Part shown: positions 25,524 through 27,347 of the stretch, piece after piece
Layout: each line of letters opens with the position of its first letter
How positions within the stretch are numbered: position 1 is the first letter of the stretch
Virus record (IMG/VR): IMGVR_UViG_3300036770_006434
Coordinates: 1 to 64,000 of that record
Direction: 5' to 3' (one strand)
Origin: a virus
Length of the DNA: 64,000 nucleotides
The notes under the pieces: model-generated
What the model saw: the letters and a program-made list of their open reading frames with translations, nothing else
What the model was told of the DNA's origin: nothing
Databases searched by the model: none
Made by a program: the position numbers and the translations under genes

Positions 25524-26114
25524 GTTGGGCGAAGAAAAATTACCATCATGAATCCATTCCAGAACATTCGCAATTGGACCCGTAAGGATTTTGATGAGTC
25601 TGACGAAGAAAAGAAGGCCAGAAGAGAGCGGGCGCGTGTTGAGACCGACCACGATCTGCAAAAGCCGGTCCAGCAGCTTTTGTGCGATGTCCACGAAGAG
25701 TCGCTAGCTCCCGTTCCGACGACTAGCGAAGGCGCGGCGATTGTATTCCAGCTCCAACGTTTGATTGGAGCGCAAAAGAGAATGGTTTCGTTGCAGACCG
25801 TAAGCACATTCCAGACGGGACGCACGAATGCTTTAGTGTTTTGGCTCACAGCGATTATTGTTATCCAGACGTTTGTCCTCATCTACCTTACTCTTTACCC
25901 GAGGACCGGACCAAGTCCGGTCTGTCACTGTCACGTAGATGGCGCAGACAAGAAAAGTGCCGATAAAAAGTGACCAAAGAAGCAAGGCCCAGCCCAACAA
26001 GGTGCCAGAGCCAACGGCCACAGCCGTCACGTAGGGGGTAGTTATGAGGTATTCGATCATGATATATGTTATTCTAAAGAACGTTGCCGCTGTGGTCGTG
26101 GCTCATCTTTGACG
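25524..26114 (+). mobile_element. integron-type gene cassette 1
   Basis: Begins at core site GTTGGGC (25524-30); one plus-strand ORF; ends in attC whose R'' GCCCAAC is the exact complement. Confidence 0.8.
25548..25973 (+). CDS. cassette-borne membrane-anchored hypothetical protein (141 aa)
   Basis: ATG 18 nt after the core site; one C-terminal TM (LVFWLTAIIVIQTFVLIYLTL); opposite strand to neighbours. Confidence 0.7.
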   Translation: MNPFQNIRNWTRKDFDESDEEKKARRERARVETDHDLQKPVQQLLCDVHEESLAPVPTTSEGAAIVFQLQRLIGAQKRMVSLQTVSTFQTGRTNALVFWLTAIIVIQTFVLIYLTLYPRTGPSPVCHCHVDGADKKSADKK

Positions 26115-26120
26115 TTGGCC
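25992..26120 (+). repeat. attC site 1
   Basis: GCCCAAC-AAGGT-GCCAGAGC-CA[A]CGGCCACAGC...GCTGTGGTCGTG-GCTCATC-TTTGAC-GTTGGCC; canonical 7-5-8...7-6-7 spacing with extrahelical base. Confidence 0.85.
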
Positions 26121-26356
26121 GAAGAGTGCTTGATGACTTCGCCGTTCCCGTCGCGGACGGACCAGAAGAGGATTTCCAGCGCGTCGAGCTGTTCCTTTTT
26201 CCACCCGATGCGGAGCATCTCAGCCATAATCTGCCCGCAGACAAGAATTCCACGCCGCGTGGGTTTCTTGGCGGCGCGGATGCGTTCCAGTGCTTGCGTA
26301 GCCTCCTCGGCCAACCCGTCGCCAGTGCCAACGCTCGGGACTTGTCCTTTGTTCAT
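26069..26356 (-). CDS. hypothetical protein, antisense within cassette 2
   Basis: Starts in the attC2 loop and stops in the attC1 loop. Confidence 0.6.
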   Translation of the reverse strand: MNKGQVPSVGTGDGLAEEATQALERIRAAKKPTRRGILVCGQIMAEMLRIGWKKEQLDALEILFWSVRDGNGEVIKHSSANVKDEPRPQRQRSLE

Positions 26357-26422
26357 AAATTTTTCCTCCGCTCGCCGCCCTGGGGTTTCTCGCCCGAGCG
26401 CGGCACATCTTTTTCGTTCGGC
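26309..26422 (+). repeat. attC site 2
   Basis: GGCCAAC-CCGTC-GCCAGTGC-CAACGCTCGGG...CCCGAGCGCG-GCACATC-TTTTTC-GTTCGGC; R'' complements the upstream core GTTGGCC. Confidence 0.85.
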
Positions 26423-26784
26423 TTCCGAACGAAACCTTCATGGCTTTCCATATCCAGCGTGAAGGGATGGTGCGGAAAGTTTTCCAAAAGAATGAGACGG
26501 CAGCGGTCGCAGATTCCCTCGTAGTTTTTCACCTCGTTGTGATGTTCCCGGCATCGGGGACATTCCACGAACGCCGGGTTTTCAACTCGGGCCGCCTTCA
26601 TCGCACGATAGTCCGCCTGAATGGCTCGGATGTTGTCGCAGGTCAGAGGCTCCGACGGGAAGGATAGGCGATGATCCCGTGTCTGTGCGGACGTAAGAAA
26701 GCCGAACGAATCGCCAAACACAAGATGCGCGCTGGCACCTTGCAGGGTTGAACTAGAATCTGGGGTGGTGTGCGTCTGTGTCAT
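26353..26784 (-). CDS. hypothetical Zn-finger protein, antisense within cassette 3
   Basis: CPRC...CDRC; ATG inside the attC3 right arm, stop in the attC2 loop overlapping the next ATG (ATGA). Confidence 0.6.
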   Translation of the reverse strand: MTQTHTTPDSSSTLQGASAHLVFGDSFGFLTSAQTRDHRLSFPSEPLTCDNIRAIQADYRAMKAARVENPAFVECPRCREHHNEVKNYEGICDRCRLILLENFPHHPFTLDMESHEGFVRKPNEKDVPRSGEKPQGGERRKNL

Positions 26785-26798
26785 ATCAGGTGTTGGGC
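26701..26798 (+). repeat. attC site 3
   Basis: GCCGAAC-GAATC-GCCAAACA-CA[A]GATGCG...TGCGTCTG-TGTCATA-TCAGGT-GTTGGGC; R'' complements the upstream core GTTCGGC. Confidence 0.75.
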
Positions 26799-27347
26799 AT
26801 ACCCTCATACACCAGACACCACGGTTTGTCCTGTTCAATTATACCTTGTCTCTCCCATTTTTCACGGCAATCCTTGGCGTTATGAATGAAGATAGCCCCG
26901 TTGTCACGCTCTACGGGATGACACCAGCAGGAAGAATTCGCGGAATGAATGGGTTCCGGTCTGCCAAGCGGGATGATATGGGTGTATTGATCCATGTATT
27001 ACTCTTTCTTCCTCCAGTCCCCCACACACCAGATTTTGCCGCCCTTCCGGTCAACACAGAAATCGTGACCGGCAGGCTTGGTCCCGGGCTTCGTCTTTAC
27101 GATGGAGAAAATGATTTCGGGATATTCCCGGGCCAGATCGGCGGTCGGGATGTCCCGCATGGCGTTCTTCAGCTCGTAATCGAAATCCTTGAAATCATGC
27201 GGAATCTCTTCGCTGTCAATCTCACAGGAGTTGTCGATACGGATGTGGCGGACCGGCGGCAGGGGCTTGAATTGGGTCGGATCAGGTGGCATGTAAAGCG
27301 GTTTTTTGAATAGTGCGCGGGGATTAGACCCCGGATTGAATCACTTG

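Follow-up and report, generated by a model that had tools for sequence, protein, structure and literature searches.

The question raised by the locus described here is whether genes of a phage can be carried as integron cassettes while running against the attC sites that delimit them. The locus lies in a virus genome, IMG/VR record IMGVR_UViG_3300036770_006434, which is 190,671 bp long, has direct terminal repeats and is rated complete. Its first 64 kb (64,000 nucleotides) are the window analysed, and coordinates refer to this window unless another locus is named. Genes of the window are nearly all small, densely packed and located on the minus strand; among them are a DNA polymerase, an RNA ligase and a methyltransferase. 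At 25525-26792 three small modules follow one another, each closed by a structured repeat of attC type, and open reading frames (ORFs) of the minus strand begin and end inside these repeats. Integrons are known as bacterial gene-capture devices. The region is likely to be an integron-type array of three cassettes without an integrase, in which phage genes lie antisense to the attC sites and which a host integrase could exchange in frame (Table 1).

Table 1. Features of the array and of its edges. Cassettes are cut after the G of the outer core.
Feature	Position	Strand	Description
Left array edge	25511-25530	+	3' attC-like stub: 8-mer, 5 nt, core GTTGGGC; crossover 25524/25525
Gene P	25548-25973	+	141 aa, C-terminal membrane helix; sense cargo of cassette 1 (25525-26114)
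ORF A	25833-26060	-	75 aa; ATG in the attC1 loop, antisense over the 3' end of P
attC1	25992-26120	+	129 nt; inner core GCCCAAC, outer core GTTGGCC, crossover after G26114
Gene B	26069-26356	-	95 aa; antisense cargo of cassette 2 (26115-26416)
attC2	26309-26422	+	114 nt; inner core GGCCAAC, outer core GTTCGGC, crossover after G26416
Gene C	26353-26784	-	143 aa, CxxC...CxxC zinc ribbon; antisense cargo of cassette 3 (26417-26792)
attC3	26701-26798	+	98 nt, divergent; inner core GCCGAAC, outer core GTTGGGC
Upstream phage ORF	26786-26995	-	69 aa; crosses the attC3 outer core in the AAC frame

Identity and orientation of the attC sites

Sites were scored with covariance model R2, trained on 51 bacterial attC sites and on no sequence of the window. 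The training sites include the array adjoining an integron integrase in Horticoccus (Opitutaceae). In a search of the 190-kb genome attC1 scores 73.5 bits (E 2e-15) and attC2 49.9 bits (E 1e-9). attC3 scores 22.9 bits (E 1.4e-4; 5 kb searched, filters off) and 13.6 bits with model R1. All three sites lie inside 0.8 kb in a single orientation. At 129, 114 and 98 nt they fall in the size range of attC palindromes (R''-L''...L'-R', about 57-141 nt), of which a cluster without integrase has two or more in a few kb. Aligned window and bacterial sites share the R box, the unpaired spacer and the L-box stem. Pairing is kept by compensatory changes, among them a T-A pair in the L box that is peculiar to attC2. 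The hairpin of attC1 (26004-26109, plus strand) has a folding z-score of -4.3 against shuffles. Sliding-window folds and z-scores pick out attC1 only, and folding detects these sites poorly.

Cassette limits are consistent with recombination. The cassettes open with the hexamers TTGGGC, TTGGCC and TTCGGC, which are exact complements of their own inner cores GCCCAAC, GGCCAAC and GCCGAAC. The complementarity is to the inner core of the cassette's own attC, not to that of the adjacent site, and is perfect in three of three cassettes. A shift of this kind is what recombination at G/TT (the slash marks the crossover) would yield. In cassette 3 it lends support to the weak attC3.

The sites were at first read as chance or regulatory hairpins and the ORFs as plain phage genes. 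This was abandoned because the site behind gene P is conserved behind the homologues of P, and because of the covariance models. Chance or purely regulatory hairpins at gene junctions (coupling, terminator stems), or an assembly chimera of phage and bacterial integron, are scarcely credible as an explanation. The E values of attC1 and attC2 come from a model trained on bacterial attC alone. The whole array region is covered by a single 33.7-kb contig of depth 61, with which independent assemblies agree. B and C overlap each other and are co-directional with the flanking phage genes. These findings stand against three that would suit hairpins or a chimera: hairpins are common at phage gene junctions, folding z-scores are unremarkable at two of the three sites, and attC repeats can mislead assemblers.

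Absolute orientation of the sites is fixed by the integrase-linked array of Horticoccus, which the same models score on the plus strand along with plus-strand ORFs. No opposite-strand match was obtained at any site, even at E 10. Spacers of 5 nt versus 6-7 nt and a longer L'' (one extra base) match the canonical attC layout. attC sites are known to fold more stably as the bottom strand (PMC5027507); under the present call bacterial sites show this published bias, the bottom strand being more stable by 5.3 kcal/mol, and the phage sites lack it. In the window array the spacers measure 5 versus 6 nt. A wrong strand call, which would make B and C plain sense cassettes and P an inverted one, is very improbable on these grounds, even though attC sites are imperfect palindromes with a core consensus identical on both strands and attC1 folds better as plus-strand RNA. 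With attC top strands on the plus strand and phage transcription on the minus strand, the sites are antisense to phage transcription.

Antisense genes B and C

Judged from sequence, B and C are real minus-strand genes, and their attC-encoded termini are predicted protein ends. B begins in attC2, which encodes its start and first 16 codons, and ends in attC1, the site of the neighbouring cassette, which encodes the final 15 codons and the TAA. For C, the first 28 codons are encoded by attC3 and the last 21 by attC2. The attC2 loop holds the start of B and the stop of C, with GGAGG, the ATG of B and the overlapping TGA of C, and the attC1 loop holds the stop of B and the start of ORF A. C starts in the 3' box of attC3, and the upstream phage ORF stops two codons past the attC3 core, one base before the ATG of C. 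Junctions are TAA, 8 nt, ATG at 26071-26058 and an ATGA overlap at 26356-26353. No promoter-like site is present in the 8-nt gap or the 4-nt overlap. The peptide NVKDEPRPQ is the reverse translation of the attC1 R'-spacer-L' arm, and AVGSGTLLG that of the attC1 L''-spacer-R'' arm.

A preliminary description of this DNA had listed the minus-strand ORFs 26353-26784, 26069-26356 and 25833-26060, had noted both junctions and had taken the two peptides for translated attC arms. All of these are present as described. It had also found no convincing sense ORF in cassettes 2 and 3. Plus-strand ORFs of 146 aa and 117 aa do extend over these cassettes; for B the substitutions described below mark the minus frame as coding. 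Codon usage and six-frame models did not separate sense from antisense frames and were set aside.

Gene B has 15 homologues with 49-97% identity, conserved in the core and variable at the ends. Compared with the homologue at locus L006, it shows 16 nucleotide differences, 14 of them at third positions, and two amino acid changes; any other frame gives 7-15 residue changes. This third-position bias indicates that the minus frame is the coding one of B. Gene C has two homologues of 98 aa, which cover residues 29-120 only. An Atlas search with C gave weak leads, namely small zinc-finger and NinF-like phage proteins. Homology limits (B residues 17-81, C residues 29-120) coincide within a codon with the cassette interiors, 26115-26308 and 26423-26700. 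Relatives without attC (loci L001 and L003 for B, L009 for C) have no terminal extensions and sit in co-directional phage-type gene rows. Pfam and PHROG scans gave no function for P, B or C. A perfect 10-bp palindrome with a 3-nt loop is located at 26412-26434; it consists of the attC2 outer core and an inverted copy within the coding sequence of C.

Antisense layout and reading frame in other phages

Searches of viral contigs for related loci with single proteins or with a P alignment (A3) gave no match. A 19-nt pattern retrieved 14 viral contigs, 9 of them with arrays of 4-10 sites. No integron integrase was found in five other array-bearing viral records searched, two of which are complete. 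The longest antisense ORF equals or exceeds the sense ORF in length in 33 of 37 phage cassettes versus 8 of 49 bacterial ones, and it runs across the entire interior in 22 of 37 versus 4 of 49.

The reading frame across the crossover is regular. Antisense ORFs that read through the outer core do so in frame with the crossover triplet AAC as a codon in 35 of 38 cases (p 5e-14); six further ORFs end at TAA in the R box or core. Frames 0 and 1 are equally open over the proximal arm and are used 35 to 1. Frame 2 is shut by TAA in most R boxes. In the preferred frame a stop is found inside 49 of 53 phage attC sites, and the next ATG either overlaps this stop as ATGA or lies no more than about 11 nt beyond it. 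The layout is also seen in L022, a complete phage of 44.6 kb with terminal repeats and a head-protein gene: its tiled minus-strand ORFs start with ATG and meet inside a plus-strand attC at nine of nine junctions, and two of its antisense cassettes encode DNA methyltransferases. In L020 the stop of a RecT gene is TAA inside an attC core.

Signs of a possible exchange between cassettes

Homologues of B and C have no neighbours in common with the window. Nucleotide similarity to L007 (89%) and L006 (91%) breaks off at 26112-26114, the G/TT of attC1. The B homologues of L005, L007 and L008 have attC sites to either side, which lie on the other strand from the gene. In the source subsurface metagenomes the contig graph branches at 26114 and at 26418. 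At 26114 the B cassette is joined to a different attC end (depth 8 versus 30); at 26418 attC2 is followed by other cassettes (depths 11 and 3). The minus-strand frame is preserved in every alternative contig junction.

The preliminary description had proposed that phage genes became cassette modules in inverted orientation. This is supported by the families of B and C, which also occur free of attC in phage gene rows, and by homology confined to the interiors. Its suggestion that homologous cores might occur with different neighbours joined at GTT agrees with the end of similarity to L006 and L007 and with both graph branches, and the attC-flanked homologues supply the link to attC on which it had depended. 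Its proposal that termini are swapped applies to the C-terminal tail only; the start and N-terminus are part of the cassette's own attC and would move with it.

The following mechanism would account for the array. Its attC family is that of Opitutaceae chromosomal integrons, and a host integron integrase would excise and re-insert cassettes during infection. In genes B and C the start codon and the 16-28 N-terminal residues are encoded by the gene's own attC, in its loop and L''/R'' arm. Each gene then crosses the recombination point AA/C (bottom strand) with AAC read as an Asn codon, and the attC of the next cassette supplies, through its R'/L' arm and loop, the final 15-21 residues and the stop. 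Given a shared crossover frame and a stop in nearly every attC, any cassette could adjoin any other. Exchange at AA/C would keep the direction, frame and stop of the gene and alter a short C-terminal tail only, while the start codon and N-terminus would travel with the cassette. The inverted orientation may dodge the T-rich, terminator-like 3' side of a sense attC, or may place the recombining strand where it is more often single-stranded; an inverted Vibrio array and its strand exposure offer a parallel for an effect of orientation (PMC13108822). Beyond this locus, there is an even chance that Opitutaceae phages keep an antisense cassette pool of their own, with a shared coding layout, shuffled between phages by host integrase in frame and in operon.

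Observations against a functioning array

Several observations weigh against an array that is still exchanged. attC3 is a weak match. By folding energy attC2 and attC3 cannot be told from shuffles. Phage attC sites fold at about -19 kcal/mol versus -27 to -32 kcal/mol for bacterial ones, and the bottom-strand bias is gone; weak folds of this kind fit decay or coding constraint as well as function. The left edge holds only a 20-nt stub. A search of near-identical contigs and of four DNA runs gave no empty site: the three cassettes are present, unchanged, in the four near-identical contigs and in the runs. The alternative junctions may stem from other genomes of the sample. The other viral loci were found by one 19-nt pattern, their ORF calls are mechanical, and some cassettes across loci are related.

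Part of this list would be expected of a frozen relic: on one or a few occasions the phage lineage would have acquired a piece of an array, whose attC sites have since lost the ability to recombine and are in decay. The termini would then be read-through into dead sequence, and the regularity of frame would reflect frames that stayed open. The weak folds without strand bias, the shuffle-like folding of attC2 and attC3, the missing empty-site variant among near-identical contigs and the closing of frame 2 by TAA in most R boxes are in line with such a relic. It is nonetheless unlikely, since two frames are open and one of them is used almost exclusively (35 to 1), the shifted core complementarity is perfect in every cassette, the contig graphs branch exactly at two crossover points, and one gene family occurs beside different attC sites and neighbours in several phages. 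The weak, unbiased phage folds keep a partly or wholly frozen array alive as an alternative to the exchangeable array preferred here.

Cassette 1 and the left edge of the array

Gene P is oriented against the direction of phage transcription. It has 30 homologues with 33-80% identity, several of them in bacterial chromosomal contexts; homologues occur inside a bacterial attC array (L012) and adjoining attC sites (L010, L011). P and its homologues are followed by the same structured site. At L012 the cores of this site are perfect integron cores, and L012 is a regular bacterial array with one such site after each small plus-strand gene. An IS110-family transposase gene is located at the edge of this array (L012 1-427). 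A canonical cassette has sense cargo that ends before or in the 5' part of attC; cassette 1 is of this type, and cassettes 2 and 3 are not.

ORF A has the N-terminal motif typical of these antisense ORFs and starts in attC1, as had been described. Its standing as a gene is not supported. It overlaps conserved gene P by 141 nt and has no true homologue among 1.8 billion representatives, and substitutions relative to L010, the nearest P homologue, do not favour its frame. By this comparison of sequences, ORF A is probably a by-product frame and not a gene, whether translated or not.

The left stub is a repeat of the attC3 3' end. Its 8-mer and core, 4-5 nt apart, occur together only at 25511-25530 and 26780-26798 in the 190-kb genome, as a direct repeat around the array. 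No 5' attC half that would make up a full attC0 was found left of 25511 with covariance models. The sequence CTACTGG/TT is present at the left edge of the window array (25518-25526) and at L006 801-809, right after the B homologue; on the coding strand it reads ...N-Q-stop at both places. Its presence only at the window edge and in L006 led to rejection of a general entry site. The sharing may be a coincidence or may mark a common entry site. Left of the array, at 25068-25481, gene calls conflict among near-identical contigs: a minus-strand ORF of 122 aa (25113-25481) is opposed by a plus-strand ORF of 94-107 aa.

Phage genome and likely host

No match to PF00589 (tyrosine recombinase, phage-integrase family) was obtained across the whole 190,671-bp record. 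With three cassettes and a genome free of integrase, the array 25525-26792 is a cluster of attC sites lacking integrase (CALIN). It is not a complete integron, which would comprise intI, an adjacent attI and the promoter Pc: there is no tyrosine recombinase, and the place of the left edge is taken by the attC-like stub.

A pattern scan of one genome per species placed arrays chiefly in Opitutaceae and in other Verrucomicrobiota, with 10-13 sites per locus in Horticoccus. In Horticoccus sp. locus L164 (G001:C8:117500-131500) a minus-strand integron integrase (TIGR02249, 371 bits, cut-off 265) is followed by at least 20 attC sites, all called on the plus strand by the models and accompanied by plus-strand ORFs. 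Opitutaceae (Verrucomicrobiota) are the likely hosts of the phage. Large chromosomal integrons are present in Opitutaceae genomes at L164, L049, L107, L100 and L035, with 14-20 or more attC sites in 8-14 kb; these sites are about 143 nt or about 97 nt long. L035 bears a Paceibacterota label; its attC sites, which are of the Opitutaceae family, suggest that it was binned wrongly.

A second, single sense cassette is located in the tRNA cluster of the window (45966-46628), where a plus-strand ORF of 124 aa (46059-46433) lies between two attC sites. R2 matches there are at 45966-46023 (28.8 bits) and 46519-46628 (48 bits), both on the plus strand. The second site has the inner core GCCGATC and is a near look-alike of the site behind the P homologue in L010. 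The minus-strand ORF at 34200-34682 has 40% identity to the methyltransferase of an antisense cassette in L022 and L030; no convincing attC adjoins it, and the nearest match has 11.8 bits.

Comparison with known systems

The sedentary chromosomal integron of Horticoccus at L164 shares its attC family with the phage array, as judged by covariance model, and its R box, spacer and L box are laid out alike; P homologues occur in such an array (L012). It differs in its adjoining intI, stronger hairpins and bottom-strand bias, and cargo in bacterial arrays is sense in 41 of 49 cassettes. Phage arrays lack intI, carry their cargo antisense and form hairpins that are weaker and show no strand bias. 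Toxin-antitoxin cassettes in chromosomal integrons are often inverted. They resemble the phage cassettes in that cargo may oppose the direction of attC and of Pc. They are self-contained, scattered among sense cassettes, and have their own promoter (PMC13108822), whereas the phage cassettes form whole antisense runs in one operon with phage genes and share coding sequence with attC.

Clusters of attC sites without integrase, with methyltransferase cargo, have been described in virulent and temperate phages, and phage attC sites were recombined by a bacterial integrase in assays (Qi et al. 2023, PMC9892861). The present arrays resemble those in the absence of intI, in methyltransferase cargo and in core motifs repeated at the array edges. 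Cassettes running in the same direction are typical there, in contrast to the antisense cargo found here; a text search of PMC9892861 gave no mention of cargo antisense to attC. Start and stop codons inside attC and a shared crossover frame are described here and not in PMC9892861, and the present attC family, unlike those, is matched to chromosomal integrons of the likely host family.

The PeSL elements (early promoter plus stem-loop) of T4-type phages are intergenic and were described as mobile regulatory cassettes (PMC2839356, PMC4122927). In both systems stem-loops recur on either side of small accessory genes, in the plastic parts of large phage genomes, and modular shuffling has been proposed. 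PeSL are thought to act by homologous recombination; here attC of the host family overlaps coding sequence. The array does not have the PeSL structure of an intergenic early promoter and stem-loop, its junctions being free of promoter-like sites and its repeats fitting attC models. Integrase-mediated insertion of cassettes outside att sites has been described in bacterial genomes (bioRxiv 10.1101/2022.09.11.507474); it offers a possible entry route for the first cassette into a genome lacking attI and attC, for example at the left-edge G/TT.

In the literature searched, of which journal coverage was incomplete, no description was found of antisense cargo sharing coding sequence with attC, nor of a crossover frame rule. 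The antisense, in-frame attC layout appears to be new; attC clusters in phages are already published.

Biological meaning

Integron annotation tools that expect sense cargo would mislabel such arrays. If the array is functional, lytic and temperate phages would trade methyltransferases and small early proteins by means of a host recombinase, with long operons left undisrupted. A recombination site would serve at once as coding sequence and as a translational junction, and one protein would have a C-terminal tail that varies with its neighbour. B and C, known with and without attC, are a concrete case for how genes become cassettes. If the reading is true, an integron-like exchange system has been co-opted by viruses, and these phages may show ordinary genes turning into cassettes.

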